From a virus: a stretch of DNA of 64,000 nucleotides. This document shows positions 27,758 to 49,406 of the stretch, piece by piece. The stretch's first letter is position 1. Each line of letters opens with the position of its first letter. The translations under genes and the position numbers were made by a program. The notes under the pieces were generated by a model that saw only the letters and a list, made by a program, of their open reading frames with translations, did no database searches and was not told the DNA's origin. The stretch covers positions 1 through 64,000 of the IMG/VR virus record IMGVR_UViG_3300023109_002988; one strand, 5' to 3'.

Positions 27758-28603
27758 ATGAATAATATTATTTTGGGCCATGAGTCTTTTGTTCTGTTGG
27801 ATGGTATTCATTTAACAGGCGTTGATTCTGTATCAATTTCGTCAAGAAACAATAATTCTATTGATAGCCCATTGGGTACAGAAATGGGGTTGACAACCCC
27901 ATCTTCACCCACCGATCAGTCTATGACATTATCTAGAAAATTAATGTACAAAGATCCAATTTACCAAATTTTAGGCAAGGACAAAACCTTACAGGGTCAA
28001 ATACATGACATTAATGACAATTCTTATTATGGGTTTGAAAGCGGATATATAAGAAGCTATTCAATCAATTGTGCTGTAGGCCAATTACCTAAAGTAAATA
28101 CAAGTTTGGGTATTTTAGATGAAATTTCAACCGATATAAACAGACAAAAAAATGGTCAACCAAGAAATCGCCCCAGAAAGAAAACTCACCCAGATATAGA
28201 TAGTCCATCTCAAAAAAATATTTATATAACATCAGAAGATTTTAAGGACAACAGAATTGTTGGTTTTGATTTTTCAGTATCTTTAGACCACAAAGTTTAT
28301 TATGGTATAGGATCTACATCCCCATACGCAATAGAGCAAAAAAGACCTATAAAATATTCCGCTTCTGTTCAGCTGGAATTAGGTAAAACATACAACACTC
28401 AGACTTTTGATTTCTTAGATTCAAGACAGAACAAAGATGTGTCTATAGATATAGAGGGTAGAAACGGAACTAAATTAAATAATATAAAAATACCAAATGC
28501 AAGTTTAGTGGGTAGGAATTTGAGCCAATCGCAAAAAGGATCAGTAGTTATGAGTTTGTCTTATGTTGGTCATTTAGGGGGAGACAGGATCTTTTTACCT
28601 TAA
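27758..28603 (+). CDS. Divergent tail-tube-like protein (possible tube initiator/distal tail)
   Basis: GYIRSYSINCAVGQLPKVNTSL aligns with AFLSDYSVDLSVGSLPTATVSF; RPIKYSASVQL aligns with FPVNATMSVNA. Confidence 0.5.
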   Translation: MNNIILGHESFVLLDGIHLTGVDSVSISSRNNNSIDSPLGTEMGLTTPSSPTDQSMTLSRKLMYKDPIYQILGKDKTLQGQIHDINDNSYYGFESGYIRSYSINCAVGQLPKVNTSLGILDEISTDINRQKNGQPRNRPRKKTHPDIDSPSQKNIYITSEDFKDNRIVGFDFSVSLDHKVYYGIGSTSPYAIEQKRPIKYSASVQLELGKTYNTQTFDFLDSRQNKDVSIDIEGRNGTKLNNIKIPNASLVGRNLSQSQKGSVVMSLSYVGHLGGDRIFLP

Positions 28604-28639
28604 TTTATTTATTTTTTATTTAAATTTTATATAATATAT

Positions 28640-30487
28640 ATGGCTTATGTTAAAATAGAGGACGAAGAGTTAATTTATGACAGGACTAGAAACTTTTCTG
28701 GCATATCTTACTTTGAGGAAGTTAGTGAGATATCTTGTCCTACAAAAGGGTCTAGTGTAGAATTTTTAGCCAAAGATAAGGCTTTAACTACCAATCACAA
28801 TTATTTAAATATAACTCCTGTAGGCATTAATAATTTATACGCCAATTTTAATATGGTTTATGAAGTTGATGAGGAGGAAGCTGCTAAACTAGCTAACTTT
28901 CTAGAAGAAAAAAGGGGTATCGAGCCTGTTTTTTTTGATTCTGATCCAACTATATATAGGAAAATAAATGGTTTTTGTAATCAATATAGCATTAACCAAT
29001 TAGACGCTTCTACTTATAAGATATCTGCGCAATTTGAAATAACAGAATCTCCTGGAAGTTTTAATTGGACTGGATTAAATTTTTTAGATCCAGATTATGA
29101 AAGTTTATATTACGAGCAGGAAAATAGGGAGTATTCAAAGTATGATGTAGTTTACGATCAGAGGCTCGAGTTTAAATACCAGGACAAGATAAATAATTTT
29201 TATTATTGTCTTGAAGGACACAACTCTTCAGCTGATGCATCTATAAATCTCGAGGAAAGCCCTTATTGGACTAAAGATTTCTTCTGGCAACCAGATGTTG
29301 GTCAAACTAATTCTGTAAAGTTTGACGTTCAAAGATTTGGAGATAAGGATGGTTTTCCTTTGAGGAGAAAGATAAAATATAATACAGCATCTTTCCCGAT
29401 TTCTTATAATTTTACAAAAATAACCACCAAGCAGCTAAAGAGTATGCTCCACTTCCTGGAAAATTTAGGTGGCTATAGAAGATTTAAACATCAAATACCA
29501 TCTGTATACAATAGACCTAAGGTTTTTGTTTGCAGAAAATGGGTTCATACATGGAACAGTTTTGACTCTCACGATTTACAGGTGTTTTTTGATGAAGATC
29601 CACTAGGAATAATTCCAGACAGATCTCTTCATAATACCGAGACTCTTTCTACTAGAATTTTTGATGGTGATTCAAATTTAATTGATCAAATTCAAGGCGA
29701 TATACCTGATTATTGGGCAAACATGGATCCAGAACTTCACCAATTAAAAATTGGAGCTGGTTGCGAAACAATAGGAGAGTATGCATTTGCAGGAGCTGTA
29801 AACCTAAGGGGTGATTTGATCATACCTGGGAATGTAAAAACTATAGAAAATAATGCATTTGATAGTTGCGCTTCTTTTAATGGATCTTTATTGTTGGGTG
29901 GGGGCTTATCTTACGTGGGGGATGAAGCATTCAAAGATTGTAGTGATCTTATCGAAGACCTTTTGGTTCCTCCAAACACCAGATATATCGGGGACAAAGC
30001 CTTCTTCGGTTGTAGCAATCTAGATGGGGCTCTTTCCTTAGGGAAGATTTTAAGTCATATTGGAACTGGCGCTTTTCAAGGTTGTGTTAAACTTAACTCT
30101 AAGTTAGTTATACCAAGTACATTAAAGACAATATCTGAAAGAGCATTCAGGGGATGTTTTAAATTGAACGGCGACTTAGAAATACCATCTGGAGTTGAAA
30201 ATATTGAAGAGCAAGCTTTTTTTAATTGCCGTAAATTGGGTACAGATGTAATCATACCGCCAACTATAAAAACAATAAAAAATAATGCATTTTATGGATG
30301 TAAATACGTGTATAATGTTTATATAAATGCTCCAGTAGCGCCAACAATATATGGGGATCCGTTTCCAACTGCAAACATGGAAAAACTGAAGAGAATTCAT
30401 GTACCTTTGCAAGCAGCTGGTTATAATGATCCTTATTGGTTGGCCAAAAGGGACGAGGGAAAATTAGTATTTGACATTACACTCTAA
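28640..30487 (+). CDS. Minor tail protein with C-terminal BspA-type LRR array
   Basis: N-terminal ~330 aa has two minor-tail-like halves (LANFLEEKRG; MLHFLENLGG..F). The C-terminus has about 9 IPxxVxxIxxxAFxxC repeats. Confidence 0.75.
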   Translation: MAYVKIEDEELIYDRTRNFSGISYFEEVSEISCPTKGSSVEFLAKDKALTTNHNYLNITPVGINNLYANFNMVYEVDEEEAAKLANFLEEKRGIEPVFFDSDPTIYRKINGFCNQYSINQLDASTYKISAQFEITESPGSFNWTGLNFLDPDYESLYYEQENREYSKYDVVYDQRLEFKYQDKINNFYYCLEGHNSSADASINLEESPYWTKDFFWQPDVGQTNSVKFDVQRFGDKDGFPLRRKIKYNTASFPISYNFTKITTKQLKSMLHFLENLGGYRRFKHQIPSVYNRPKVFVCRKWVHTWNSFDSHDLQVFFDEDPLGIIPDRSLHNTETLSTRIFDGDSNLIDQIQGDIPDYWANMDPELHQLKIGAGCETIGEYAFAGAVNLRGDLIIPGNVKTIENNAFDSCASFNGSLLLGGGLSYVGDEAFKDCSDLIEDLLVPPNTRYIGDKAFFGCSNLDGALSLGKILSHIGTGAFQGCVKLNSKLVIPSTLKTISERAFRGCFKLNGDLEIPSGVENIEEQAFFNCRKLGTDVIIPPTIKTIKNNAFYGCKYVYNVYINAPVAPTIYGDPFPTANMEKLKRIHVPLQAAGYNDPYWLAKRDEGKLVFDITL

Positions 30488-30489
30488 TT

Positions 30490-33400
30490 ATGAGCCAAAG
30501 GATAACATTAAATAGCGCTAATTCAGCAATTATAATATCAGATTCCCCTGCTTTTAAAACTCAAAATGAGTCTAGTTTTGTTTTTGCTGGGGTGCAATCT
30601 TTATCTTATGGTTTTAACAACGTAAGAGCTGATACCAGCCAAATAGGTTCTCAAGCTTTTGATGATAAAAATATAATAAGGCAGCCAGATGTTAAATTGC
30701 AAATGAGCTACAGCTTTAGCCCCACTTTTGCCAATGAGGAACTAATGGGGTTAACTTATAACCTAGATGCTAAATCTAAATTTTCAGTTATTAAAGGTTT
30801 ATCTGATTCTTCTTATAATTTTTATGTTTACAATCATCCAGAGCAAGAGCAAGACGCTTTGGAATATATAAAAGATGGCGTATCTCCAAATGGAGGGGAA
30901 GTTGTTTCAATTGGCAATGCATATTTAACTAATTATAATATGACATTCACGCTAGGATCTATCCCAAGTGTAGATGTTGAATTCGATTGTTCTAATATAA
31001 AAACTGAAAATTATACATCTGCCTTTATAGAAAGTCCAGCCATAAATTTGGAATCTGGTAACAATATTGGAGTAGGGTCTATAAATATATTAGACACCAA
31101 TTATTACGAAAGATCAAAATTTGGAGATATTTATAATCTAGATAGAACAAGAATAGAGACCATATTACCTAAGGATATAAATTTTCAAATGGATAATTTA
31201 TCCATAGGAGGTCAAAAACTAGAACTAGAAAACCATAGAATAAACCAGTTTTCTATAAGTTTACCTATTAACAGATCAAATGCATATAAGCTTGGTTCTG
31301 ATTATGTGTGCAGTAGAAAACTAAATTACCCAATAGACGGAAGACTGTCTATATCATCTTTAGTTACTAATTTAGAGGCTGGATTTATAAGTGGACTTGT
31401 TAAGGGTGATCAGATATCAAATCTGAAAATTATATCTTCAGATTGCGAAAAGAAAGTGTCTTCCCAATTTTATTTCGAGGATATAAAGTTGGAAAATGTA
31501 GAATATCAAACACTGGTAAATGAACAGACAAACTATAATCTTGAGTTTTCATTTCAAATAACAGATGAAAAAGGATTTAAGACCGCAGTAACAGAGCAGG
31601 ATATAGATGCAACTAGGTTTATAGATGATGAAAATAAAGTTTATGAATACATTCAAGGGGATGTTATTGAGGGTTGGCAGTCTGGAGATTTGGGCGGCTA
31701 CAAAATAGCTTTTGCAGAAATTAAAAACTTCGACGTTTTGGAGGCTGCTTTTTCTGGATGCACAAATATAGATAAGCCTGTATTTTTGTCTCCGCAAATA
31801 AACGTTATTGAGGATGATGTTTTCCATGGATGCACAAACCTGCCTGATTTTTATTCCGATTCTGCTTGTAGAGTACAAGTTTTTGGGGAAAGGTCCTTTA
31901 AGAATTGTTCTTCTTTAGAAGAAATAGTTTTACCTATAAGTATAAAAGAAATAAAAGAAGAGTCTTTCATGGGTTGCTTTTCTGCTAAAGATTTATTTTT
32001 AGCGGATGTAGAAACCGTTGGTGAGAGAGCTTTTTATAATTGTTACGGACTTTCTGAGAATTTATATTTGCCGAATTCTTTGCTTACTCTAGGTGAAAGC
32101 GCTTTTGAAAATTGCAGCGGAATGGAGGGAGGCTTGTTTATAGGGGGATCTCTTACAAGAATAGAAGATAAAACCTTCAAGAATGCAAAACTTTTTTCTT
32201 TTGATCTAGAAATACCAGACAATATAACAAGCATAGGTCACGAAGCTTTTTATGGGTGCGATGGTTTTGATGGGGAGTTAATTTTAAGCTCTGAGCTATC
32301 AAAAATAGAATCTTACTCATTCTATGGATGCAGTTCTTTAACTGGTTATTTAAACATACCAGAAAATGTAATCGAAATAGAAGACTCCGCTTTTGAAAGC
32401 TGCTCTGGTTTTAATAAAGAAATATTACTGCCTGGAGTTGAAATAATAGGTGATAATGCTTTTTCTGGATGCTCCAGCTTAACTGGAAAAGTTAACTTTG
32501 CTTCTGGAATTTCAACTATAGGAGATAATGCATTTATGAATTGTAGTTCATTTGGATATGCTCTTAACATACCAAGCGGAATACAATCTATAGGAGATAG
32601 ATCATTCTCTGGTTGCGTAGGAATACAAGACGCGTATGTTAATTTTGCCGCAACCGTATTCCAGGGCCAAGATGCTTTTGCTGGCATAAAGGGATGCATG
32701 TATGTGACGCCTTTCCATTATAATGCTTACAAACAATTATCTGTAGATGGGTATTTCCAGGGAATGCCTGTTTGTTATGGGTCTATAGATACAATAGTTT
32801 TTGACGCTAATACAGCAGAAATAATAAAATTTAAAAGAGGTGATATACCTACTAATTGGTACTCTAATCAAAGCAGAGCTTCCTTGTTAGTGATAGGGTC
32901 GACCTGTAAAAATATAGAACCAGGAGCTTTTGATGGTAGTGATGGATTGGAGGGTCTTTTTGTTATTCCAGATGAACTTGAAACAATAGGTGATTTCGCT
33001 TTTAGAGGGTGTAATTTTGAAGGTGAGTTGTTAATACCAGATACTATAAAATATTTGGGAAGTGGAGCTTTCGAGGATTGCACTGGTTTTAATGATTTTC
33101 TATTGATAGGAGACGGTATAGATACCATAAAAGGCAAGACTTTTAAAAACTGCTCAAACATAAATAGTGATATAATCATAGGTAGTGAAATTATATCTAT
33201 CGAAGATGAGGCTTTTTATAATTGCACTGGTATATCTGGAGATATTTCTCTTGGATTCTCCGTGTCATACATTGGTGATTACGCTTTTTATAATTGCAAA
33301 AATGCGGTTGGGGATTTAGAAATACCAGAAGATGTTACTTATGTTGGAGATTTTGCTTTTTATAATTGTTCCAGCTTGGATGGAGACTTTATAACTGCAG

Positions 33401-36400
33401 AAGCAATAAGCATTGCTTATATAGGAAATTCTGCTTTTGAGGATTGTTCTTTAATGAGTGGCCCTCTTGTAATGCCAGCTTCTGTGACTTATATAGGAAG
33501 CGGCGCATTCAAAAACTGCAGAGGATTAAATTCAGAAATTGATTTGACTTTAACTCAGATAAATGAGATAAATTATCAATCATTTTTTGGTTGTTCTGGT
33601 CTTGTAGGATCATTGGTTATACCAGATTCTGTTCAGTACATAGGAGACGAAGCTTTTCTTGGGTGTTCATCTTTGAGCGAGAGTATTACAATAACAAATA
33701 TAGCAGCCAGAAATATAGGTAATAACGCTTTTGACTCACCAATACAATTCCAAGAATTAATAATTAGCGATTCTGTGGGTGAGGTACGTCAATATGAATT
33801 TGATTATTTTAAAAATGATCCTTTGTATTTGACAATGCAGGAAGGATTGACTGGAATTAATGAATACTCTTTTTCTAACTACGCTTTTATTGGTGATCTT
33901 GATATACCATTGACATTAAAGTATGTAGGGGATGCGGCTTTTTCTGGATGCGAGTTCGGGGGTACGTATATTTTTGAAGATTCCAATATTGAATATATTG
34001 GAGATTATGCATTTTACGATCTAGATTTAATTGACGGAAATATAATTGTTCCAAATGTAGACTATGTAGGAAAAGGAGCTTTCTTTAACAACTCTTCTAT
34101 TGACGGCTATATTACTTTTGGAGAAGTGATTTCAAGTATAGGGGAATATGCTTTCGCTAACTGCTCGAGCGCAATAGGTGATTTAACAATACCAGATAAT
34201 GTAAGCAATTTGGGGCAGTATGCATTTTTAAATTGTTCTTCTTTAAGTGGTACGCTGACCCTTCCTAATAATGAAGAGTTTAATATTATAAAAACTGGAA
34301 CTTTTAAAAATTGCTCTCTTTTAAGCGGAGATCTTTTGATTCACGATTATATATCTGGCATAGAACAAGAAGCATTTTTGGGTTGCAGTGGTCTTACTGG
34401 AGATATAACAATCACAGACGTTTGCGCTTCGACTTTGGTTGGATCAAATACATTTGACGACTCCCCCTTCTCTAGATTGATAATTAGTGATTCTGTAGTT
34501 CAGATAAATAATACTGAGTTTGATTACTTTGCATCAAGACAGATGGAAGTTGTATTTGGAAAAGGGTTGAGTGGAATTTTAGATGGAGCATTTGATAATT
34601 ACAATTTTGTAAGTGAATTAAACTTACCTTTATCGCTTACTGGTATCGGGGTAAGCGCTTTTGAGAATTGCAACGGTCTTTATGGTAATTTAATCATACC
34701 AAATAATGTCTCTGGAATAGGTGAGGACGCATTTAGATCATGCAGTAATCTTTCTGGCAATTTAATTTTGCCTAGTAGAATAGAGAATATTGGTGATGGA
34801 GCTTTTGTAGATTGTGTTAAATTAGATGGATATATAAGAATATCAGACCTAACAGCCTCTTCTATCTCATCTTACCCTAATGTTTTTGGAGGCACTAACT
34901 TCAAAGAGTTAAGGGCAACTTCATCAGATTTAATAATAGAAAATACAGAATTTGATTCTTTCAATGCTTTTGTAGGCGCGTTGCTTTTGGAGCCATCTGT
35001 ATTAGATGTAGGGCCATATGCATTTGTAGATAACTTCTCGTTTGCTGATACGTTAACAATAAGCGAGAATTCAGAAAGAATTGATGACTATGCATTTTCT
35101 GGTAATAGTTTTATTGGAGATCTTGATATAAATTCTGAATTCATAGGGTATGCTTCATTCGCAGATTGTAGTAGTTTCGACGGTAGGTTTACAATCAATA
35201 CTGCGACACTAAATGAAGTAGGTGATTACGCTTTTTATAACTGCTCTAATCTTAGTGGCGATTTAATAGTGGGTGAGGTTTTGAGTGGAATTGGAGAATA
35301 TTCATTTTCAAACATGAGCAGTTTGGATGGAGAGTTTGCTCTTTGTCAATTGCCTGAAGATTTTGATGGTCAGCTCTCCAAATACGAACCAACAATAGGT
35401 GAATCAGGGGTTCTTACATTTGAATTCGAAGAGTATGTAGAGACATCATTGAAGTATTTTGGTGACTATGCATTTGCAAACAATTCGAACCTATCTGGGA
35501 ACTTAGTAATACCAGATACAACTACATCTTGGGGAGAATATGCATTTTTAAACATGTCTTCCTTGGATGGATTCTTGATATTAGGAAGTGGAGTTAATAG
35601 TATACCAGAGGGAATATTTAAGAATTGCTCTGGTTTAAATTGTTATGATGGTTTATTTAAGATACCAGAAAATGTTTCATTTATAGGTGCTGAAGCTTTT
35701 TATAACTGTTCTTCTTTGGACTGCGTATTAAGGTTGAAGCCTGGGGTAACTACTTTAACGGACGCTTTCTTTGGAACTAACTTTGATAAGTTGTTAGTGC
35801 CATCAGGAACAGTTGCTATTTTGGATGGTGATTATGACGCACTTCAAAACCTCGATATAAAATTGGGATTTGAGTCTCCAGATTCAGCATTTAGAACATT
35901 GGGAGATCTTGCTTTTGATAATTATCAGCTAACAGGAACATTGGTTTTACCAGAGTCTACGGATTACATAGGGTCTTCTGGGTTTTTAAATTGCGACTTG
36001 CTAAGTGGATCATTTTCCGTTCCTTCTTCTGTAAAAGTTATAGGTAATAGTGCGTTTAGAAACTGTTCTGGTTTTGATGGAGAATTCTCGTTAGTTAATT
36101 TACCAAGTTCATATAATGGAGAAAGTGATTTAGATGTGGCTTTATCAGGCATAGGAGAATACGCTTTTGCAAATTGTCAAAATTGGACAGGGAACATAGT
36201 GATTCCAGATGGTGTTAATTACGGAAAGTACAGTTTCCTTAATAACAAATCTCTTGACGGGTTTTTGATTCTTAATCAAACTTTAGAAGTTATACCAGAA
36301 GGAGCCTTTAAGAACTGCGAACAAATAACTCGTTTTGAGGGTGAAACCTTCACGATACCAAGAGTTGTAACAACAATAGAAGATGAAGCTTTTTACAATT

Positions 36401-39400: not shown

Positions 39401-42400
39401 TCAAACAAGATATAATAACTCTTAAATTTGAAAATTATAATTCACTATCTAATACTAGAAATATCGGAAGTGGAGCATTTGCTGATTATAATTTTAGTGG
39501 CGAATTAAATCTACCTATTTCATTAACAGGTATAGGTGATAATGCTTTTAATCAAAACGATTTACTTGAGGGTCCATTGAGTATACCATCTAACGTAAGG
39601 GAAATAGGATCTGGAGCTTTTGAAAATTGTAGTGGTTTTTATGGTGATTTCTCATTCCCTAAAACTGTAATAAGCATAGGGGCAAAAGCTTTTAAGAATT
39701 GCGAAAATTTAGTTGGTACGCCTGAATTTTTTATAACTACTGAAACTATAGGAGATGAAGCATTTGCTAATTGCCTTAGTTTAAATGGAACAATGGAACT
39801 ACCACCAAATATTACAAGTATTGGTAGTGGAGCTTTTCTTAATGCTATAGGCATAGATGGGGTTACAATAATTTCATTGCCAAGCGACGTATTTAAGGGT
39901 GAGAATGCTTTTTCTGGAGTTGGGGGTGTTCTAGAATTGTCTCCGTTAGTATATCAGGATTACTTGCAAAATAGTGATTTGATAAATGGGGACTATTATT
40001 TCCAGGGAATAAAGATAACTGGACAGATAACTGACGACACTGTGTTTTACATAAGTGTCGATTCGAACGAAAATAATAAGTACCAAGATCCTTTTGATGG
40101 TACATTGACATCACAAAACTTTCAATCTTACGCTATTCCAAACAACTGGAAAGAAGGGATACCAAATGACCCAAAATATGGTGGACTAGATTCACGAAAT
40201 CAAAATTGTTGGTTAGAAATAGGTGGTTTATGCGACAGTGTTACAACAGGAGCATTTAAAAATAGAAAATTCTTAAGAGGCGATGTCTTTTTCCCAAGTT
40301 CTGTAGACAGTATTGATGATGAGGCTTTCTTAAACTGCGAAAGGTTAGAAGGATTAACATTTGCTTCTTACGGATTGAGAGATATTGAAAATGATGCTTT
40401 TTATAATTGTAAACAAGTCACTAGCGATATAAATCTGCCAGAAACAATAGAAAATATAAAACCAGATGCTTTTAAGTATATGTATAGAGCTGGAAACCTA
40501 ATCTTGAATGGAACTTCATTAACTGGAATTAGCGGTGGAACTTTTCATAGTTTCGGAGATGCAGCTTTAAATAAAACATTTAAACTAAATGAGGGTCTGT
40601 TAAATATCGAAGCCCTTGGTTTTTATCAGGCTGGAGGGATAGGTGCTTCTTTAGAATTGCCAAGTACATTAGAGACCATTGGTTACCAAGCTTTTTACTC
40701 TTTCGGTGGGGCTACTAATACCCTTAATGCCCGTGGTGAATTAAAAGGTATTAATCAATCTTCATCTTTGTCGAATATAGAAAATAGAGCATTTGAAGAA
40801 TCAAACGTTACTGGTCATATAGTATTTCCAACGTCATTGCCACATATAAAATATAGGGCTTTTTACGGCTCGAAGATAACTAGCGTATCTGGATTTGATC
40901 ATATGGATTATATAGGTGAAAGCGCATTCGCTAGAGATACTAGAAACGCAACAAATCTTAGAATGGATAATTTAGTTATACCAGAAAAACCTTATTTGTC
41001 TAGGAGATGCTTTTCTAGCCATCAATATGTAAAATATATTACTCTTGAAGGACAAAGAGACGATTCAGATATAGACTGGCGAGGCCAACAATTCCATGGA
41101 TACAACAATGGTTACCTGTTCAGTGATCTGACAGGTTTTAACGCAAGTGGAACTAATTATTTTGCACATAGTATGTTCGGTTCTAACCACAACGTTATGA
41201 TTGAAGATAATTTCTCACCGAATTTGAGCGGTATTGACCAGAACGCTTTTTATTTTTGCAGTTATCGTGGTTTTTATAACGGCACTTCTCCATCTAGACC
41301 ACCTTCAATAATTAATTTGCCTAGCGGTGTTGTGTCAATTGACAATGGTGCTTTTCAAAATAATAAATGGACTAATCAATTAAATTTTTCAGGAGCTGAA
41401 TCTGGATTGATTATAGGTGATAATGCTTTTGAAAATTGTGGAACCGTTTGGCAATATGCCGCGTATAGTACATTTCGGGAATACGGCCCAAGAAATTATA
41501 ATAATATTTATTGGGGTCACGATGAGATAGACATAACTGGAGAATTTATTATTCCTAGCGGATTAAACTATTTGGGTAAAAGCGCTTTCAGAGGGATAAG
41601 AGGTAGAAATTTAGATATTATTTTTAGCGATGACTTTACTGGGAGTAGAACCGACCTGCAAATTATAAATGCTTATGATAATAATTATAGAGACAGAAAC
41701 ACGCTAGGGACAAAAGATTATTGTTTTTACGGTAGTCAGTTGAGAAAATTAAAATTATCTCAATCTATGGAAACTATTGATAATTACATGTTTTCATTTT
41801 TTACTATAATGGATCATAACAATTTTGATTCTCCGTTAGGAGTTAAGGAATTTGGAATAGAGTCTTTCATACGTTTTAATTGTGAGTCAGGGGATGGTAA
41901 GTTTACCTTTGAGTTCGGATCTGGATTGAACCGTTTAGGGAAAAAATCTTTTGCTACCTATGGTTTGCCAGAAGATCCCGTTTTTCAAGGAAAAGTAGTA
42001 CCAAATCATACTTACTCTGGAGAATATATAGAGCACAGATGTATAGAGGCGTTTGATTTCTCTAGAGTAAGTGGAGCTGTCGATTTTGAAGAAGCATGTT
42101 TTAGCAGAACATGGGCTGAAGGAACTATGACATTGCCAGAAGTTAATAGTCTTGGTCAAGGTGTATTTTTCGGAGCAAGTAGACTTGAGTCTGTTGTGTT
42201 CCAAAGCTCACCAAACTTAACAACCTTGGCTGATTCAACATTTTCAAATTTAGCTAAATTAACTGGAGTAATCTTTAATAATGAACTTACATCGATAGGT
42301 AGTAATGTTTTCGAAAGTTGCCCATCTTTAATTGACTTTGATATTTCTAATACAGATATAGTAAGTCTAGGTAGCGAAATGTTTAAAGATGCCTTTAATT

Positions 42401-43671
42401 TAACTAATGTTAATCTATATAATGGAAAGCTTACAACATTGGGAAATAGAGTCTTTGAAAATTGTACTAGTATCGACGATCTCTATATACCAAATTCAGT
42501 AACAACGGTTGGTAGTAATTTATTTTTAAATGCAAACATAAATATATTAGACTACGATGTTAATACTAGCGTTTTAGATCCATTCTTGTTTAACGGGGCT
42601 ACTATAGGCGATTTATCCTTACCCCAAACGACCATAGTAGTTAAAGAAGGTGTATTCCAAAATGCAATATTTGGACCAGATCCTTTTGATGGATTGCCTA
42701 ATGGAGTGGTTACCTTTGAAGATAGTGTGTTTAAGCAAACACCTTTAAGTGGTATATTTATTCCTTCATCACTTAGCGGTTTAGCGAACACTACATTCAA
42801 AGACTCACCCAACCTTACTGGTTTAGACTTTTCTTCGTGTAGTTCACTTACTGGAATTGGAAATGAAAACTTCATGAATTGTGATTCTATCACAGGTATT
42901 GTTTTACCTAATTCTTTACAGATTATTGGGGATGGCAACTTTAAGAATCTTGATTTAATAGAAGAAATAGTTTTCCCAACATCTTTAGAATACATCGGAG
43001 ATGAAAACTTTAAAAATTGTTCTGGCTTGTCTATTGTTGATTTGTCTAATACAAATTTAATAGAAATGGGGAACAGAAACTTTATAGAAGATACAAATTT
43101 AAAAACTATACTTGATCTTAATTTACCAGATAGTTTGCAAGTGATTGGTGATGAAAACTTCAAAGAAATTAATCTTAACAGTTTAAAGCTTCCTACTGGA
43201 TTGAGGGTTCTTGGGGATTCTAATTTTTACGATTGCGAATCTTCGGATCAAACGATTTGGGGAGAAGGAGATCCTCCTGTGTTTAGTCTGCCAAGCGGGA
43301 TTGAAAGTATAGGTAATTCAAATTGGGAGAGATCAGACGCAATACAAAGACTTAGGATAGATGAAGGTTTTTCTGGTTCGATAGGAAATTTAAACTGGAA
43401 TTTATGTAATCAAATAAGTCAGCTTCTTATAAAAACAACAGATTCTAATTTTTCAATAGGCGATAAAAATTTCACAGACTTAAATTTATTGGGTGTAATT
43501 CAAATTGATTGCCCAGCATCTTGTTGGCAAGGAACAGGTAATTTCGACAAATCTAAAACAGATATGGTAATTTATGTTAATTCAACTTATGCGGCTGGTT
43601 ATAATGCAACCTGGAGTGGAGATCAAGCAGTGCCAAATGGAGCTACAATAATAACTTACGACCCTCAATAA
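30490..43671 (+). CDS. Giant (4393 aa) tube-like domain + BspA/LRR_5 array protein
   Basis: N-terminal ~370 aa shares GVQSLSYGF, IGNAYLTNY..LGSIP.V.V.F, SPAINLESG and LG..Y...R..NYP with the tube paralogs. The remainder is LRR_5-like repeats. Confidence 0.85.
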   Translation: MSQRITLNSANSAIIISDSPAFKTQNESSFVFAGVQSLSYGFNNVRADTSQIGSQAFDDKNIIRQPDVKLQMSYSFSPTFANEELMGLTYNLDAKSKFSVIKGLSDSSYNFYVYNHPEQEQDALEYIKDGVSPNGGEVVSIGNAYLTNYNMTFTLGSIPSVDVEFDCSNIKTENYTSAFIESPAINLESGNNIGVGSINILDTNYYERSKFGDIYNLDRTRIETILPKDINFQMDNLSIGGQKLELENHRINQFSISLPINRSNAYKLGSDYVCSRKLNYPIDGRLSISSLVTNLEAGFISGLVKGDQISNLKIISSDCEKKVSSQFYFEDIKLENVEYQTLVNEQTNYNLEFSFQITDEKGFKTAVTEQDIDATRFIDDENKVYEYIQGDVIEGWQSGDLGGYKIAFAEIKNFDVLEAAFSGCTNIDKPVFLSPQINVIEDDVFHGCTNLPDFYSDSACRVQVFGERSFKNCSSLEEIVLPISIKEIKEESFMGCFSAKDLFLADVETVGERAFYNCYGLSENLYLPNSLLTLGESAFENCSGMEGGLFIGGSLTRIEDKTFKNAKLFSFDLEIPDNITSIGHEAFYGCDGFDGELILSSELSKIESYSFYGCSSLTGYLNIPENVIEIEDSAFESCSGFNKEILLPGVEIIGDNAFSGCSSLTGKVNFASGISTIGDNAFMNCSSFGYALNIPSGIQSIGDRSFSGCVGIQDAYVNFAATVFQGQDAFAGIKGCMYVTPFHYNAYKQLSVDGYFQGMPVCYGSIDTIVFDANTAEIIKFKRGDIPTNWYSNQSRASLLVIGSTCKNIEPGAFDGSDGLEGLFVIPDELETIGDFAFRGCNFEGELLIPDTIKYLGSGAFEDCTGFNDFLLIGDGIDTIKGKTFKNCSNINSDIIIGSEIISIEDEAFYNCTGISGDISLGFSVSYIGDYAFYNCKNAVGDLEIPEDVTYVGDFAFYNCSSLDGDFITAEAISIAYIGNSAFEDCSLMSGPLVMPASVTYIGSGAFKNCRGLNSEIDLTLTQINEINYQSFFGCSGLVGSLVIPDSVQYIGDEAFLGCSSLSESITITNIAARNIGNNAFDSPIQFQELIISDSVGEVRQYEFDYFKNDPLYLTMQEGLTGINEYSFSNYAFIGDLDIPLTLKYVGDAAFSGCEFGGTYIFEDSNIEYIGDYAFYDLDLIDGNIIVPNVDYVGKGAFFNNSSIDGYITFGEVISSIGEYAFANCSSAIGDLTIPDNVSNLGQYAFLNCSSLSGTLTLPNNEEFNIIKTGTFKNCSLLSGDLLIHDYISGIEQEAFLGCSGLTGDITITDVCASTLVGSNTFDDSPFSRLIISDSVVQINNTEFDYFASRQMEVVFGKGLSGILDGAFDNYNFVSELNLPLSLTGIGVSAFENCNGLYGNLIIPNNVSGIGEDAFRSCSNLSGNLILPSRIENIGDGAFVDCVKLDGYIRISDLTASSISSYPNVFGGTNFKELRATSSDLIIENTEFDSFNAFVGALLLEPSVLDVGPYAFVDNFSFADTLTISENSERIDDYAFSGNSFIGDLDINSEFIGYASFADCSSFDGRFTINTATLNEVGDYAFYNCSNLSGDLIVGEVLSGIGEYSFSNMSSLDGEFALCQLPEDFDGQLSKYEPTIGESGVLTFEFEEYVETSLKYFGDYAFANNSNLSGNLVIPDTTTSWGEYAFLNMSSLDGFLILGSGVNSIPEGIFKNCSGLNCYDGLFKIPENVSFIGAEAFYNCSSLDCVLRLKPGVTTLTDAFFGTNFDKLLVPSGTVAILDGDYDALQNLDIKLGFESPDSAFRTLGDLAFDNYQLTGTLVLPESTDYIGSSGFLNCDLLSGSFSVPSSVKVIGNSAFRNCSGFDGEFSLVNLPSSYNGESDLDVALSGIGEYAFANCQNWTGNIVIPDGVNYGKYSFLNNKSLDGFLILNQTLEVIPEGAFKNCEQITRFEGETFTIPRVVTTIEDEAFYNCQNLLDSDIKIGAGLTIGANAFFGEDFNDLIVPNYEEVIIDGDYEYFKTLSIGLKFESVSSVSGIGDRTFLDYRLTGSLSLPQSLISIGSSGFKNCDLLSGSFSVPSSVEVIGDSAFRNCSGFDGEFSLVDLPLPYNGQSDLDVALSGIGEYAFANCENWTGNLVIPDGATYGKYSFLNNKSLDGFLILNQTSEVIPEGTFKNCEQITRFEGETFTIPRSVTTIGDDAFYNCQNLLDSDIKIGAGLTIGANAFFGEDFDDLIIPNYEEVIIDGDYEYFKTLSIGLKFESVSSVSGIGDKAFLDYRFTGSLSLPQSLKSVGSSGFKNCDLFSGDLFLLRTEIIKDNAFENCSGFDGDLFIGSPTESIGVNAFTNCSSFKGSIDLPNSCTTLGEEAFLNCSGFDSVIDVGNGIEYLEDRTFKNCQSASGHLYLSENVTGIGNSVFENCFKLNRNGNLLEIPRSVDYIGDKAFFNCNDLLVGELRIKGSLDIGVDAFEPFNFGILGVPDYQTYINSGDYSYFKDKTFQLSFENYNSSYLGTEHISGKAFSGYNLTGTLNLPRKLREIGDHAFVNSTGLSGDLTFLSQLRIIGDGAFQNCSGFDGKLFIGSSIDSIGVNAFTNCSSFTGSIDIPNSCTTLGEEAFLNCSGFDGNIDIGNGLKYLEDRTFKNCQSASGVLDLPLNISGIGNSVFEKCYKLKSKITDILEIPRYVDYIGDEAFYQCFSLLQGTLRIRGGVDIGINSFEPFGFENLSVPDYQVSIDSGDYLYFKDKAFQLTFENSNSLACKTRDIYEKAFSGYNLFGTLNLPIGLKEVGDYAFINSTGLTGDLYLNKYLETVGERAFENCSGFDGEFSLAPLPYWFEGSPNFGNTVQLETIGDYAFANCENWSGNLVIPNGVSYGEYCFLNNSSLNGFLILNETLNRIPEGAFKDCSKLTCYNGVFKIPEVVSLIERYAFQNCSGLDCDLQIGPDASIGTQAFEGTDFKGLVIPSFLQEVQYQDYDYFKQDIITLKFENYNSLSNTRNIGSGAFADYNFSGELNLPISLTGIGDNAFNQNDLLEGPLSIPSNVREIGSGAFENCSGFYGDFSFPKTVISIGAKAFKNCENLVGTPEFFITTETIGDEAFANCLSLNGTMELPPNITSIGSGAFLNAIGIDGVTIISLPSDVFKGENAFSGVGGVLELSPLVYQDYLQNSDLINGDYYFQGIKITGQITDDTVFYISVDSNENNKYQDPFDGTLTSQNFQSYAIPNNWKEGIPNDPKYGGLDSRNQNCWLEIGGLCDSVTTGAFKNRKFLRGDVFFPSSVDSIDDEAFLNCERLEGLTFASYGLRDIENDAFYNCKQVTSDINLPETIENIKPDAFKYMYRAGNLILNGTSLTGISGGTFHSFGDAALNKTFKLNEGLLNIEALGFYQAGGIGASLELPSTLETIGYQAFYSFGGATNTLNARGELKGINQSSSLSNIENRAFEESNVTGHIVFPTSLPHIKYRAFYGSKITSVSGFDHMDYIGESAFARDTRNATNLRMDNLVIPEKPYLSRRCFSSHQYVKYITLEGQRDDSDIDWRGQQFHGYNNGYLFSDLTGFNASGTNYFAHSMFGSNHNVMIEDNFSPNLSGIDQNAFYFCSYRGFYNGTSPSRPPSIINLPSGVVSIDNGAFQNNKWTNQLNFSGAESGLIIGDNAFENCGTVWQYAAYSTFREYGPRNYNNIYWGHDEIDITGEFIIPSGLNYLGKSAFRGIRGRNLDIIFSDDFTGSRTDLQIINAYDNNYRDRNTLGTKDYCFYGSQLRKLKLSQSMETIDNYMFSFFTIMDHNNFDSPLGVKEFGIESFIRFNCESGDGKFTFEFGSGLNRLGKKSFATYGLPEDPVFQGKVVPNHTYSGEYIEHRCIEAFDFSRVSGAVDFEEACFSRTWAEGTMTLPEVNSLGQGVFFGASRLESVVFQSSPNLTTLADSTFSNLAKLTGVIFNNELTSIGSNVFESCPSLIDFDISNTDIVSLGSEMFKDAFNLTNVNLYNGKLTTLGNRVFENCTSIDDLYIPNSVTTVGSNLFLNANINILDYDVNTSVLDPFLFNGATIGDLSLPQTTIVVKEGVFQNAIFGPDPFDGLPNGVVTFEDSVFKQTPLSGIFIPSSLSGLANTTFKDSPNLTGLDFSSCSSLTGIGNENFMNCDSITGIVLPNSLQIIGDGNFKNLDLIEEIVFPTSLEYIGDENFKNCSGLSIVDLSNTNLIEMGNRNFIEDTNLKTILDLNLPDSLQVIGDENFKEINLNSLKLPTGLRVLGDSNFYDCESSDQTIWGEGDPPVFSLPSGIESIGNSNWERSDAIQRLRIDEGFSGSIGNLNWNLCNQISQLLIKTTDSNFSIGDKNFTDLNLLGVIQIDCPASCWQGTGNFDKSKTDMVIYVNSTYAAGYNATWSGDQAVPNGATIITYDPQ
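35971..37383 (+). repeat. 693-bp (231-aa) near-identical tandem duplication within giant LRR gene
   Basis: TTGCGA anchor at 35991, 36684 and 37377; long identical stretches between copies. Confidence 0.9.
37430..38950 (+). repeat. 738-bp (246-aa) older tandem duplication within giant LRR gene
   Basis: AGCATAGGAGTTAATGC at 37492 and 38230; PNSCTTLGEEAFLNCSGFD and YLEDRTFKNCQSASG each occur twice. Confidence 0.85.
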
Positions 43672-43673
43672 CA

Positions 43674-46600
43674 ATGCCAAGAAACAGAACTATATATCAA
43701 TCTGAATCAGTTTTCGTTAGTAACAACTTAGATTCTACTGACGTTTGGGAACACGCTGAAGTAGCAAGAATACAAGAAGCTAGTTATGGTTTTTCCATGA
43801 ATAAAACAGATGTCAATCAGTATGGAAAAAGCAGTAGAATAGATCATATAAATTTAGAACTGCCTACTGTTAATTTTGACATGTCTTACTTATTGGGTAA
43901 TGGTTACAATGAGTCCGTTTTAGGTTTTGATATTAAAGAAGGTTATCAATTTGCAAAATATCATTTAGAAAATAATAGTGGCAAAAATTTCTACGTATTA
44001 ATTTCTGAAGAAGGTCTTGATTCAAAATCTTTAGAAGTCGGAGATCCTTATACTTTAATAGGTATAGGTAATGCTTTTTTGACAAACTATTCTGTAGATA
44101 TGTCTGTAGGTTCTTTGGCTAAAGTTAACCTGCAATACGAATGCTCAAATATAAATTCAATTCACGGTGTTGTAGAAGGTGAAGGCTTTTGGCTTACGCA
44201 GCTAAGTGGGGATAGTGCATCTATAAATATAGACAAAGGAATACCTTACGATAAGAAAATAAAAATTACTGCACCTAAAGGTGATATAGAAAATATACCT
44301 ACTGCATTAAGACCTGGCGACATAACAATAAATTTTGAAGGTTTTGATTCTGAAAATTTATCGACCATTAGTGGTAATGGTTCTTTCCATTTACAAAGCG
44401 CCAACTTATCTATTCCATTGTCTAGATCTGAACTAAAAAGATTAGGTTCGAAAGGCTCGTATGCAAGAGTTCTTGATTATCCTATAAAGGCTACTTTAAG
44501 TGTAAACTCTATAGTTAGCAATATTGAGGTTGTAGATCTTGCTGAATCTGTAAGAGGTTGTATAAACAACTCTTTGAATAATGATATATCTATATTGGCT
44601 AAGGATTGCAATAAAGAAAATGCTATTATATGGAGGCTCAAAAATCCTGATTTGTTATCAGAAAATTTCTCTTCTAATATTGGGCCAAACAAATCTGTTG
44701 ATCTTACTTTTGAGGTTGAAATAGGCAATCCAGATGATAACTCCATAGGAATACTTTGCAGTGGAGCTTCAGATAGAGATAATGAAGAAAGAGAAGACGA
44801 CAACGATTACTATCCAACCAGAGTCTACGGCTATGATTATACTGGATCCGCTGCTGCTCTCGAGGAGGGAGTCTTTACTGGCGAAAGCAACATACTTTTA
44901 GACTGGCAAACTGGTGATGTAATTGAAGAATGGAAGTATAATCGATTGTTCACCCCATGGCGAGTCCCTAAATGGGGAAATTTAGATTTCATAAAAAGAA
45001 TTGCTCCTGGAGGGTCTACTGAATATATTGGTGATGACGCTTTTCGAAACATAAAGGCAACAGGAGAATTGTATTTAACAAAGAATCTTACTGGTATTGG
45101 AACGAGCGTTTTTGAAAACACAAATATTGATTATCTTGTGGTTGGAGACGGACTTCCAAAACTTCCGAGTAGATCTTTTTATGACTGCGATCAATTAAAA
45201 ACAGTGAAAACGGCAGATTCTATAACAGAAATAGGAGATTCTTGTTTTGCATACAGCAACAAATTAAATGAGTTTTACTTTAGTAAAGGATTAAGCGGAA
45301 TTGGGGTTGGAGCTTTTCATACTTGTTCTTCTTTGCTAAAAGCTGATCTTTCTGGGTGTAATTATTTGCAAAGTATAAACGATAATACTTTCAACTCATG
45401 TACCTCTTTAGAAGAGGTGAGCTTATCGGATTCTATATTAACATTAGGAGATGATAGTTTTAAAAGTTGCACTTCATTAACTAATTTTAAATGGAGTTCA
45501 GGATTGGAGAGTGTGGGCGATAGATCTTTTAATGGATGCACAAGCTTGCTAGATCCTGTTTTTTATGATACTTTAGAAACAATCGGGGACGAAGCTTTTT
45601 CAACTTGTTATTCTTTTGATTCTGTTACTATACCAGGAACAGTAACATATTTTGGCGAATACGCATTTAAAACATGTGGAGTGAAAAGTTTAGTATTAAA
45701 CGAAGGCTTATCTGAAATCTCATATCAAGCTTTTTATAATTGTGCATCTTTAAAAAGTATAAGCTTTCCCGAAACTTTATTATATATAAATCCATATTGT
45801 TTTATTTATAACTATAGGTTACAAAACCTTAATATACCAGACAATGTTTCTGGAATAGGGAATCACGCATTCTATACTTGTTACTCGGCAGCTACTTCTC
45901 AGGAGTGTTTAGACGTTGTAAATTTTGGCAGCGGACTTAAGTTTATTGGGGAACAAGCTTTTTATGGCAACCAATCACTAAGATCAGCCGATTTGCCAGA
46001 AAACATAGAATCAATAGGATATAACGCTTTTTTCAACTGTGGTTTAAGCGGGTTTGTTAACCTTCCCGATTCTTTGAATTCAATAGGAATCAACGCTTTT
46101 GATAGTAATAATTATATTGAAAGCATCAATATAGGTGCTGGATTAACAACTCTTTCCAATAACTGTTTTGAAGAATGCACAAGCCTTTCAGGTGTATTTA
46201 TACCAGATTGGTTCGAAAGTCTTAATGACGGCGTATTTTTACGTTGCTATGATATAACTACAATAAGCCTGGGTAATGGTATAGAATATATAAATGACTA
46301 TGCATTTGGTGACTGTAGGTCACTGACAGGTATAGATATTCCTTCTCAAATTACTGGTATTGGAAATAGCGCTTTTCAAACTGGGCTAAATATAACTAAC
46401 GTTGGTTTCGTAGAAGGTTTGGAGTATATTGGTAACAGTGCTTTTGCAAATTGTTATTCTTTGACTGGAGTTTCATTCCCAAACACTTTGAGTGGCATTG
46501 GTTCAAGTTCGTTTTCTGCTTGTTCTGATTTAAGTGGTCAAATAATTTATACTCCGAACCTACAATCCGTGGGTGCTAGCGCTTTTCTTGGCACAGATAT

Positions 46601-48383
46601 ATATGATGTAGTATTTAATAATCATCCATCCTACAATAAAATAGAAGACTCTACATTCTCTAATTGTGACTTTTTAACTGGGCTTAATTTAGTACCAAAT
46701 ATCACAGAAATTGGATCTAGCTCGTTTGCAAATTGCGATATTTTAAGCGGAATTAACTTTAACGAAACTATTACCACCATTGGTAGTTCAGCTTTTAGTA
46801 GTTGCGTAGATTTAAGCGGTGTTAGCTTTCCAGATAGTATAGAGGATATCGGAAATAGTGCTTTTACTAACTGCTATGATTTGAGTTTTGTTGACTTTAG
46901 CCAAAATAGTAATTATGATACAATATCAACCTCTTGTTTTGAAAATTGCACATCTTTAACTAATGTTTTATTACCTGATAATGTAACTGAATTAGGTGGC
47001 TCTTGTTTCAAAGGCTGTACTAGTTTGGAATATATAGATTTAAATATTTCTGTGGAATATATAGGAGCCAGTGCTTTTCGGGGTTGCTCTGTTTTTAACA
47101 ACCTAGATCTGCCAAGTAGCTTACTTACTATAGCAAACGATGCTTTCAAGCTTTGCTATGAATTAAAGTCTATGAGTGTTTTTCCAGAAAACCTTGCATC
47201 TATAGGAGACGATGCTTTCAATTCTTGCGATCTATCTGGGTTTCAGTCAATTTTAACTATACCAGATAGTGTAACCTATATGGGACTAAGAGCTTTTCAA
47301 AATAATTCAGATAATTTAAGTGGTGTAGTTCTAGGGTCTGGTTTAACTAATCTTCGGTCTAGTGTTTTCCAAAATTGCACTAATCTAAGAGAAATAAATT
47401 TAGAAAATATAACATCCATAGAAAACAGCGCTTTCAAAAACTGCTTAAATTTAACTGGGGCTTTAATTCCGCCCAATATGCAGTCTATGGGAACCTCTGC
47501 TTTTGAAAATACAGCCATTGAAAGTATAATAATACCAAACGCGATAACAGAAACAAGCACTACTTTGTGTTACTCTTCTTCGTTTTTAACTGGTATAATT
47601 TCAGGCTTAAATTTAATTACTATAGGCAACAGTTCTTTTTACGGATGTGGTGCTTTAAGTGAGTTTTATGCGGAAGATAATTTGAGAAAAATTAGTAGTA
47701 ATGCGTTCTATAATTGTTCGTCAATGAGTGGTCTTGATTTAAATCAAATAACAGAATTGCAGACTAGTGCATTTAAAAATTGCGACTCTCTACCTGAGTT
47801 CCTAGAAATTCCAGATACTGTAACCGTAATGGGCACAAACATTTTTGAAGGTTGCACTAATACTACTGGTTTTTCTTGGACTTCTGGTTACAATAAAATA
47901 CCAGCTGGCACATTTAAAGGATGTAATAATATTCAAACTTTAGAAATACCAAGCTACATAACAGTAGTAGATGCAGAGGCTTTCATGAATTGCACTTCTA
48001 TAAGCGGAGTAAGTTTTCCACAAGGAATACAATATATAGGAGGATCGTTAAGAAACTATAATGCAGCCAATGGAGCATTTAAAGGATGCGTAGGAATAAG
48101 TGGAGAAATAATACTTCCTTCTTCATTGGAGCAATTGGGCCGTTATGCTTTCTATGACAGTAACCTTATAAGTACTTTTAAGTTTTATAGTACTACTGCT
48201 CCTCTTACAAGAGTAGACGCTTTTCCTGTAAAGTTTATCAACGACCCAAGTAATAATCCAATACACGCTCCTTCTGGGGCTGAAGCCAGTTATTCTGGAC
48301 AAAGTTATGCTCCATCGTATAGCTATTACGGAGCTAAAAGCCCAGTTAATTGGGATTCTTTAAATATCATTTTTGATTTATGA
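43674..48383 (+). CDS. Tube-like domain + BspA/LRR_5 array protein (1569 aa)
   Basis: N-terminus is strongly similar to 11268-12389 (MPRNRTIYQSE, DPYTLIGIGNAFL, PTALRPGDI, LQSANLSIPLSRS, IGPNKSVDLTF), followed by ~1150 aa of LRRs. Confidence 0.9.
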   Translation: MPRNRTIYQSESVFVSNNLDSTDVWEHAEVARIQEASYGFSMNKTDVNQYGKSSRIDHINLELPTVNFDMSYLLGNGYNESVLGFDIKEGYQFAKYHLENNSGKNFYVLISEEGLDSKSLEVGDPYTLIGIGNAFLTNYSVDMSVGSLAKVNLQYECSNINSIHGVVEGEGFWLTQLSGDSASINIDKGIPYDKKIKITAPKGDIENIPTALRPGDITINFEGFDSENLSTISGNGSFHLQSANLSIPLSRSELKRLGSKGSYARVLDYPIKATLSVNSIVSNIEVVDLAESVRGCINNSLNNDISILAKDCNKENAIIWRLKNPDLLSENFSSNIGPNKSVDLTFEVEIGNPDDNSIGILCSGASDRDNEEREDDNDYYPTRVYGYDYTGSAAALEEGVFTGESNILLDWQTGDVIEEWKYNRLFTPWRVPKWGNLDFIKRIAPGGSTEYIGDDAFRNIKATGELYLTKNLTGIGTSVFENTNIDYLVVGDGLPKLPSRSFYDCDQLKTVKTADSITEIGDSCFAYSNKLNEFYFSKGLSGIGVGAFHTCSSLLKADLSGCNYLQSINDNTFNSCTSLEEVSLSDSILTLGDDSFKSCTSLTNFKWSSGLESVGDRSFNGCTSLLDPVFYDTLETIGDEAFSTCYSFDSVTIPGTVTYFGEYAFKTCGVKSLVLNEGLSEISYQAFYNCASLKSISFPETLLYINPYCFIYNYRLQNLNIPDNVSGIGNHAFYTCYSAATSQECLDVVNFGSGLKFIGEQAFYGNQSLRSADLPENIESIGYNAFFNCGLSGFVNLPDSLNSIGINAFDSNNYIESINIGAGLTTLSNNCFEECTSLSGVFIPDWFESLNDGVFLRCYDITTISLGNGIEYINDYAFGDCRSLTGIDIPSQITGIGNSAFQTGLNITNVGFVEGLEYIGNSAFANCYSLTGVSFPNTLSGIGSSSFSACSDLSGQIIYTPNLQSVGASAFLGTDIYDVVFNNHPSYNKIEDSTFSNCDFLTGLNLVPNITEIGSSSFANCDILSGINFNETITTIGSSAFSSCVDLSGVSFPDSIEDIGNSAFTNCYDLSFVDFSQNSNYDTISTSCFENCTSLTNVLLPDNVTELGGSCFKGCTSLEYIDLNISVEYIGASAFRGCSVFNNLDLPSSLLTIANDAFKLCYELKSMSVFPENLASIGDDAFNSCDLSGFQSILTIPDSVTYMGLRAFQNNSDNLSGVVLGSGLTNLRSSVFQNCTNLREINLENITSIENSAFKNCLNLTGALIPPNMQSMGTSAFENTAIESIIIPNAITETSTTLCYSSSFLTGIISGLNLITIGNSSFYGCGALSEFYAEDNLRKISSNAFYNCSSMSGLDLNQITELQTSAFKNCDSLPEFLEIPDTVTVMGTNIFEGCTNTTGFSWTSGYNKIPAGTFKGCNNIQTLEIPSYITVVDAEAFMNCTSISGVSFPQGIQYIGGSLRNYNAANGAFKGCVGISGEIILPSSLEQLGRYAFYDSNLISTFKFYSTTAPLTRVDAFPVKFINDPSNNPIHAPSGAEASYSGQSYAPSYSYYGAKSPVNWDSLNIIFDL

Positions 48384-49367: not shown

Positions 49368-49380
49368 AATATATTACTAT

Positions 49381-49396
49381 TGCAGATACCATGCCA
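49381..49396 (-). promoter_or_regulatory. Sigma54-type -24/-12 promoter for hsp20
   Basis: TGGCATGGTATCTGCA versus consensus TGGCACGnnnnTTGCA; exact GG-N10-GC spacing; intergenic. Confidence 0.65.
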
Positions 49397-49406
49397 ATTA
49401 AAAAAC

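Follow-up and report, generated by a model that had tools for sequence, protein, structure and literature searches.

Siphophages usually bear their fibres and adhesins on the baseplate, on the distal tail protein or on a collar. Tail tubes are also known to be decorated, as illustrated by the immunoglobulin (Ig) domain of lambda gpV, by SPP1 gp17.1* and by TpeX, and the 'evolved' distal tail proteins of lactococcal and Lactobacillus siphophages reportedly hold inserted carbohydrate-binding modules. Here, we analysed the first 64 kb (hereafter 'the window') of a single 98.5-kb contig (IMG/VR record IMGVR_UViG_3300023109_002988) from an uncultured marine siphophage. Within this window, five genes encode copies of a domain predicted to adopt a tail-tube fold, and two of these copies are fused to giant arms of BspA-type leucine-rich repeats (LRRs). 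We propose, with a probability of roughly 0.6, that these arms are adhesins displayed close to the tail tip by a small number of specialised tube rings.

The closest described systems are the tube proteins of phages T5 (pb6; PDB 5NGJ, 9INY) and P74-26 (8ED0), in which two tandem tube domains per chain lead to trimeric, pseudo-hexameric rings. In both phages, the ring contacts are made by the N-terminus and by long loops, and the P74-26 tube is thought to grow monomer by monomer. The tube part of pb6 (residues 1-374) is followed by a peripheral Ig-like domain (residues 375-462). T5 also encodes p140 (PDB 7QG9), a duplicate of pb6 that retains only 9% identity with it. Its single trimer ring separates the last ring of pb6 from the distal tail protein pb9 (PMC10038345). 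This ring bears the p132 collar, to which the side fibres are attached; the position of its gene marks p140 as a baseplate component, and p140 and p132 are regarded by the T5 authors as a landmark restricted to T5-like phages (PMC10038345). Tube-like domains are used in baseplate hubs as well, where they build the proximal ring, either from hub domains (HD) I and IV of T5 pb3 (PMC10038345) or from HDI of gpL and HDII of gpJ in lambda. In the latter phage, the distal tail protein gpM forms a hexameric ring that links the tube to the gpL/gpJ tip.

The locus described here resembles pb6 and the P74-26 tube in its two tandem tube domains, for which the structural match extends over the full length. 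As in pb6, a peripheral adhesion-type domain stands C-terminal to the tube part, and the very long tail of P74-26 is matched by the 3351-amino acid (aa) tape measure protein encoded here. With p140, the locus would share the principle of a tube-gene duplicate that forms a specialised distal ring and attaches fibres to the tube. However, pb6 carries an 85-residue Ig-like domain on every subunit, whereas the bulk tube proteins of this phage are bare and separate paralogues bear LRR solenoids of 1,200-4,000 residues. Likewise, p140 is itself bare and holds its fibres non-covalently via a separate collar protein, whereas two further paralogues are here fused directly to an arm, and the arrangement implies as many as three distinct specialised rings. 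Unlike in T5, this design is combined with lambda-type gpM, gpL and gpJ genes. An earlier reading of this DNA (hereafter the original prediction) knew of no described example of such an arrangement; this was too strong, as the fibre-collar ring of T5 p140 and the Ig-like domain at the C-terminus of pb6 are partial precedents.

The shared domain and its five copies

Two stand-alone genes, in tandem on the minus strand, encode the domain on its own: P0001 (11268..12389, 373 aa), a candidate major tail-tube protein with a duplicated tube fold, and P0002 (12415..13563, 382 aa). The AlphaFold2 model of P0001 (48 homologues in the alignment; predicted local distance difference test (pLDDT) 75.6; predicted template modelling score (pTM) 0.75) was matched by Foldseek to T5 and DT57C pb6, T5 p140, the P74-26 tube and the major tail protein of SH-Ab15497 (E-values from 1e-11 to 3.5e-8). 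With VIA-align, residues 6-366 of the model were aligned to residues 4-355 of T5 pb6 (9iny) at a Z-score of 19.7, followed by the P74-26 tube (8ed0), SH-Ab15497 (8xan) and T5 p140 (9ioz), with Z-scores of 19.6, 18.5 and 16.8, respectively. These full-length two-domain matches (Z 16.8-19.7) are clearly above the next class, namely the single-domain tube and Hcp proteins, which align to either half of P0001 (residues 7-167 or 197-369) with Z-scores of about 8-9. As single-domain proteins fit each half and two-domain tubes fit the whole, the shared domain, as modelled, is a tandem-duplicated tube fold of the T5 pb6/P74-26 type. All named matches in BFVD, which holds predicted viral structures, were major tail or tail tube proteins. 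Moreover, the genes of P0001 and P0002 are flanked by the capsid block on one side and the tape measure operon on the other, a synteny that is kept in relatives and that fits this class, in which tube genes accompany the neck, tail-chaperone and tape measure genes of a sheathless tail module.

At the sequence level, similarity to these structures is undetectable, the structural alignments of P0001 to pb6 and to the P74-26 tube having about 10% identity. None of the five copies matched a Pfam or PHROG family, the comparison of the tube domain with PDB sequences yielded nothing meaningful beyond chance PDZ matches, and marginal matches to PHROG tail families were obtained for only three of 43 diverse members of the tube family. 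A curated-family match is not defining for this fold class, given that pb6 and p140 share only 9% identity. The original prediction of a tube-like domain was thus borne out by the fold comparison. Its 'hexamer stacking' was not: since the same duplicated fold builds trimer rings with pseudo-six-fold symmetry in T5 and P74-26, the rings of this phage should likewise be trimeric and pseudo-hexameric.

Sequence comparisons recovered all five copies expected in the window (BLASTP, family hidden Markov model (HMM), hhalign); the coordinates predicted for their open reading frames (ORFs) were correct, and the motifs quoted from the 1569-aa protein are present in it. P0001 and P0002 are 55% identical over their full length (E 1e-132). 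In the 1569-aa protein P0005 (43674-48383, plus strand), the copy serves as an N-terminal anchor (aa 1-368; 43674..44777) derived from a P0001-type tube gene, its residues 1-365 being 52% identical to P0001 (E 2e-132). The anchor of the 4393-aa protein P0006 (30490-43671, plus strand), comprising aa 1-375 (30490..31614), belongs to an old diverged clade: approximately 360 N-terminal residues are 28% identical to P0001 (E 1e-30), and the family HMM matched residues 1-374 with an E-value of 3e-108. Among the 127 columns conserved in stand-alone tubes, 11 of which lie in the N-terminal arm, the P0005 anchor retains 93 (nine of the 11 in the arm) and the P0006 anchor 40 (31%; none of the 11). P0001 and P0002 themselves form separate well-supported clades, for which mixed rings, alternating rings or distinct tail zones are conceivable.

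The remaining copy, P0003 (27758..28603, plus strand; 281 aa), is a remote, undecorated paralogue encoded directly after the tape measure gene. Its relationship to the tube family, detected by BLASTP (E 1e-4) and the family HMM (E 8e-5), was recovered by profile-profile comparison with hhalign (probability 97%, E 9e-11, 176 columns). The best Foldseek match of its AlphaFold2 model (pLDDT 73.7) was T5 p140 (7qg9_G, 298 aa; E 7.5e-9; template modelling scores 0.61 and 0.58). P0003 has the traits of p140-type proteins: its tube fold has two domains and no decoration, its length is close to 290 aa, and its gene is a diverged copy of the tube gene found in the same genome. The p140 gene of T5 presumably also lies directly after the tape measure gene. 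By fold, size, absent decoration and gene position, P0003 is therefore best read as the counterpart of T5 p140; what had been called a remote fifth copy is indeed a family member, with a more specific identity.

Leucine-rich arms in the window and in relatives

The anchors of both fusions are followed by LRR_5 repeats (Pfam PF13306, cut-off 27.7 bits). The P0006 arm spans about 4,020 aa (31615..43671) with 34 LRR_5 stretches (1423 bits), and the P0005 arm, of about 1,200 aa (44778..48383), consists of an acidic linker, a cap motif and 11 LRR_5 stretches (691 bits, E 1e-211). A third, shorter arm is borne by P0004 (28640-30487, plus strand), which matched PF05939 (Phage_min_tail) with 57.6 bits (cut-off 39). 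The anchor of this protein (28640..29644) contains two tandem distal tail protein domains of the lambda gpM type, at approximately aa 33-133 and 213-319, the second being weaker (23.6 bits, full profile covered). The internal duplication did not show in a BLASTP of the anchor; it did when the two halves were scanned separately with Pfam (E 1.6e-10 and 7e-5). By analogy with the tube, the P0004 ring may be a trimeric pseudo-hexamer, in which case the three-fold tail would be built of fused duplicates throughout. The arm of P0004 (29645..30487; LRR_5 E 2.6e-37) opens with a GDIPxxW cap motif at aa 353, and its C-terminal 260 residues are LRR_5 (128 bits). The same motif opens the arms of P0005 and P0006, and the repeat period is about 24 aa. 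Hence, the LRRs anticipated on the two fusions and on the minor tail protein at 28640 are confirmed by Pfam, and the previous estimate of approximately 17 kb of LRR-coding DNA is about right.

The LRR-containing ORFs of P0006 and P0005 are intact over 13.2 and 4.7 kb, respectively. Judging from their conservation, these giant ORFs are real genes, because they are also intact in diverged relatives (1569 aa at 84% identity in locus L021, 3172 aa in locus L028). In the structural alignment, the tube domain ends at the very point where pb6 passes into its peripheral Ig-like domain, and the LRR arms begin there. The arms are thus appended like the pb6 domain and should therefore point outward from the tube.

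The tube family is large: 3,462 homologues were retrieved at E <= 1e-3 by a word-indexed search, there are 1,492 clusters at 50% identity, and family members occur on 413 IMG/VR contigs. No match to the tube protein was found by tblastn in 50,697 GenBank phage records. A scan of genome contigs gave 10 matches, every one on contigs of metagenome-assembled genomes, which were taxonomically mixed (Flavobacteriales in three cases, and otherwise Verrucomicrobiales, Halobacteriovorax and further groups). Among 145 representative clusters with the full domain, 91 are plain, 28 have C-terminal extensions of up to 3,559 aa, five have N-terminal extensions and 23 have large internal insertions. These insertions, of 100-400 aa, lie inside the tube domain after approximately profile position 27 (P0195, P0213, P0291 and 20 others), and are a second route to ring decoration. 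The domains appended across the family include LRR_5, He_PIG, cadherin, FG-GAP-like, laminin-G-like and FGE-sulfatase domains. The tandem pair of bare tube genes is found in all close relatives containing the locus. Most of the more distant ones have one tube gene within the fetched stretch, but a few of them (L024, L036, L066 and L080) also have the pair; the loci with the pair include L003-L018, L022-L024 and L036.

Relatives display the same loci with and without LRRs, as the original prediction had led us to look for:

In L019, the counterpart of P0004 is a 311-aa distal tail protein gene without LRR, the P0006-type tube domain is a stand-alone 367-aa gene, and the gene in the P0005 position encodes a 1089-aa fusion with a non-LRR arm.

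In L028, an 89.8-kb relative, arm lengths differ. There, the P0006 orthologue has 3172 aa, and the P0005 orthologue has 528 aa (tube and short LRR), followed by a separate 964-aa LRR gene whose frame overlaps by 4 nucleotides (nt; L028:9992-14469). This could be either a real split or a sequencing frameshift.

The phylogeny, a quick maximum-likelihood IQ-TREE run with Shimodaira-Hasegawa-like approximate likelihood ratio test (SH-aLRT) support only and some long branches, places P0005-type fusions inside the P0001-type clade, and separates P0006-type anchors, including the stand-alone 367-aa orthologue of L019, as a deep clade. To account for this tree, fusion must have occurred independently four times or more. 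Anchors are consistently better conserved than arms: between P0006 and its L028 orthologue, identity is 71% in the anchor and 43% in the arm; for P0005, the values are 58% versus 33-35% with L028, and 94% versus 81% with L021. Meanwhile, the flanking replication genes are 96-98% identical to those of L028. A conserved anchor, a hypervariable swappable arm and near-identical flanks make up a pattern that reads as the usual signature of host recognition.

Proposed specialised rings and the alternatives

The fusions belong to a tightly coupled tail-tip operon, which comprises, on the plus strand and in this order, the genes for the tape measure protein (17700..27755, 3351 aa), P0003, P0004, P0006 and P0005. 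The first of these matched 15 PHROG families (best E 1.4e-44), of which 13 bear the annotation tape measure protein, and its stop codon lies 2 nt upstream of the P0003 start codon. Stand-alone tube genes P0001 and P0002 form a separate, divergent block. As the genes of the operon abut, with intergenic gaps of 2 to 36 nt, the tip proteins would be made together, presumably in small amounts.

Under the specialised-ring reading, P0001 and P0002 would be the bulk tube subunits, while trimers of P0003 and of the P0006 and P0005 N-termini would each make a pseudo-hexameric ring coaxial with the tube. Most likely, these few specialised rings would be located at the tip beside P0004, the distal tail protein of the gpM type, like the p140 ring of T5. 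Each fusion ring would project three arms, of about 1,200 or 4,000 residues, and the distal tail protein would add shorter ones. The arms would then act as exchangeable, fast-evolving modules for adhesion or receptor binding, alongside a central tip of the lambda gpL/gpJ type. Divergence from the bulk tube falls from P0003 to P0006 to P0005, and the three genes occur in this order within the operon, though the P0004 gene lies between those of P0003 and P0006. Such an order fits a stack of specialised rings above the distal tail protein, in which every ring would be adapted to those next to it and the last would be compatible with the bulk tube. Ring formation, tail position, copy number and binding function of the fusions are what we infer from these comparisons.

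The original prediction also had the LRR arms stand in place of fibres, none being recognisable. The latter is true inside the window. On the rest of the contig, however, a lambda-type tail tip module is encoded on the minus strand at genome positions 80246-90280 (L002:246-10280), far from the tape measure operon. This module includes a gpL-like protein (PF05100, E 4.5e-39) that, with 805 aa, far exceeds lambda gpL in length, and a gpJ-like protein of 1615 aa (PF13550, E 1.7e-20). It further comprises a JAB-domain protein, possibly the gpK counterpart, and two proteins of 218 and 557 aa, the latter without a match in Pfam. The phage thus has a lambda-type hub and central fibre, and because this module is in the same genome, the LRR arms would supplement the fibre rather than replace it. 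Accordingly, what stands of the earlier model of tube rings displaying LRRs is the tube fold, the paralogues and the fast-evolving, exchangeable arms seen in relatives; the replacement of fibres has to be abandoned, and the rings should be trimers instead of hexamers.

A bolder form of the model can be formulated, to which we lean less than to its denial. In this form, a programmed stack of p140-like, P0006, P0005 and bulk P0001/P0002 rings would stand on a trimeric, tandem-duplicated distal tail protein, with every ring a covalent socket for its own exchangeable arm. The primary host-recognition apparatus would consist of LRR arms, about nine in number and some tens of nanometres in length, and such 'tube-ring display' would be a general design in a large group of uncultured marine siphophages, replacing fibres mounted on collar or baseplate.

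The main rival arrangement, which we regard as unlikely though worth serious consideration, would have the fusions as minority subunits scattered along the tail, in occasional rings or in mixed trimers with P0001 and P0002, giving a bristled tail like those with SPP1 gp17.1* or lactococcal TpeX. The P0005 anchor lends itself to such a role through its 52% identity to P0001, its nesting in the P0001-type clade and the nine of 11 N-terminal-arm positions that it retains, and monomer-wise growth as in P74-26 would permit mixed rings. Furthermore, the 1048-aa fusion of locus L025 lies directly beside the bulk tube gene, outside the tip operon. In the present phage, however, both fusions are encoded in the operon of the tape measure, p140-like and distal tail proteins, apart from the bulk genes; the P0006 anchor, with 31% of the conserved columns and none of the 11 arm positions, suits a dedicated neighbour; and p140, the precedent from T5, makes only one ring, whose place is fixed.

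Less probable still is that the tube-like N-termini form a hub or adaptor outside the tube stack, such as a gp27/Tal-like cap below the distal tail protein or a neck ring, which would bear the LRR fibres. The hubs of T5 (pb3) and lambda (gpL/gpJ) do use tube-like domains, and the P0006 gene follows that of the distal tail protein, the usual place of a hub or Tal gene. Against this, a complete lambda-type hub set (gpL-like, possible gpK and gpJ-like) is present elsewhere in the genome, alignment with the two-domain tube profile extends over the whole length of the anchors and leaves no room for insertion or plug domains, and the P0005 anchor is a recent derivative of a bulk tube gene. P0006 in particular was considered as a baseplate hub or Tal protein (gp27-like, as T5 pb3) and rejected: whereas such a hub would have four hub domains with insertion or plug domains in a phage with no other hub, P0006 residues 1-374 correspond to the two-domain tube profile only, with the gpL/gpJ set encoded elsewhere. 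Finally, even though BspA-type LRR proteins are typically cellular surface adhesins, it is very improbable that the giant proteins are non-virion products, either secreted or surface proteins made in infection or decaying relics of duplicated tube genes, as their ORFs are intact over 4.7 and 13.2 kb and kept in diverged relatives, form a tight unit with the genes for the tape measure and distal tail proteins, and have a constrained anchor (94% versus 81% identity for the arm, in the P0005 orthologue of L021).

Several points nevertheless weigh against the specialised-ring reading that we prefer. The fold assignment rests on AlphaFold2 models of moderate confidence (pLDDT 74-76) with no named sequence family behind them, and the tube fold of the P0005 and P0006 anchors is carried over by homology from P0001. 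For this phage, the site and number of the fusion rings are predicted from sequence comparisons. The P0005 anchor is so like the bulk tube that it could be inserted anywhere along the tail. Lastly, arms of 4,000 residues on a tube ring are without structural precedent and might hinder stacking.

Genome setting and significance

The rest of the window conforms to a long-tailed phage, an assignment based on the 3351-aa tape measure and on a tail module without sheath gene. Among the proteins it encodes are head proteins, a large subunit of terminase and one that is probably the portal; no tRNA genes were found in it. Tail length usually amounts to 0.15 nm per tape measure residue, and 3351 aa would then correspond to a tail of about 0.5 micrometres, which nears that of P74-26, likewise a long-tailed phage whose tube protein has two domains. 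Several neighbouring genes deserve mention:

Immediately downstream of the tail operon, the minus strand carries genes for an Hsp20/alpha-crystallin protein and a single-stranded DNA-binding protein (window 49047-50840).

A 316-aa protein adjoining the tube genes (window 10263-11213) gave weak APH/RIO-kinase-like matches, and has been multiplied in the relative L005, where four paralogues, about 34% identical, stand in tandem (L005:11199-14338).

At genome positions 93408-96237 (L002:13408-16237), three small LRR_5 proteins (261, 268 and 211 aa) are encoded, with a DUF4376 protein among them; a 963-aa protein of L019 has a short match to one of the three.

In so far as core tail rings scaffold host-adhesion modules, the present design is comparable to 'evolved' distal tail proteins and tube decorations, P0004 being a gpM-type protein with an appended binding domain. 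However, the appended module is here a BspA-type LRR and not a carbohydrate-binding module, Ig or FN3 domain, and the arms are 10 to 40 times larger. Moreover, they are carried by dedicated paralogous genes, in contrast to display by frameshifting or by insertion within one gene. The repeats themselves belong to the same family (PF13306) and have the same period of about 24 aa as the BspA-type adhesins of Bacteroidota, spirochaetes and Trichomonas. The latter are cellular surface or secreted proteins, held by signal peptides or por-type domains, whereas here the anchor would be a ring domain of a phage tail. In the literature, we found no paper describing a tube-LRR fusion or BspA-type LRRs on phage tails. 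What appears new is thus the direct fusion of dedicated tube paralogues to very large LRR solenoids, with several such rings implied per tail, and the combination of this design with lambda-type tip genes, widespread among uncultured marine phages.

In such phages, the tube subunit itself has been duplicated and would hold, covalently, binding arms that are very large and swappable. The family concerned is abundant, and about one in five of its representative clusters carry a C-terminal arm. If the specialised-ring reading is true, the principle embodied by T5 p140 reaches well beyond T5-like phages, and some of the largest structural genes of phages would be explained. It would also locate the determinants of host range in a widespread group of uncultured marine phages, and provide a natural scaffold for the display of large proteins on a phage tail.

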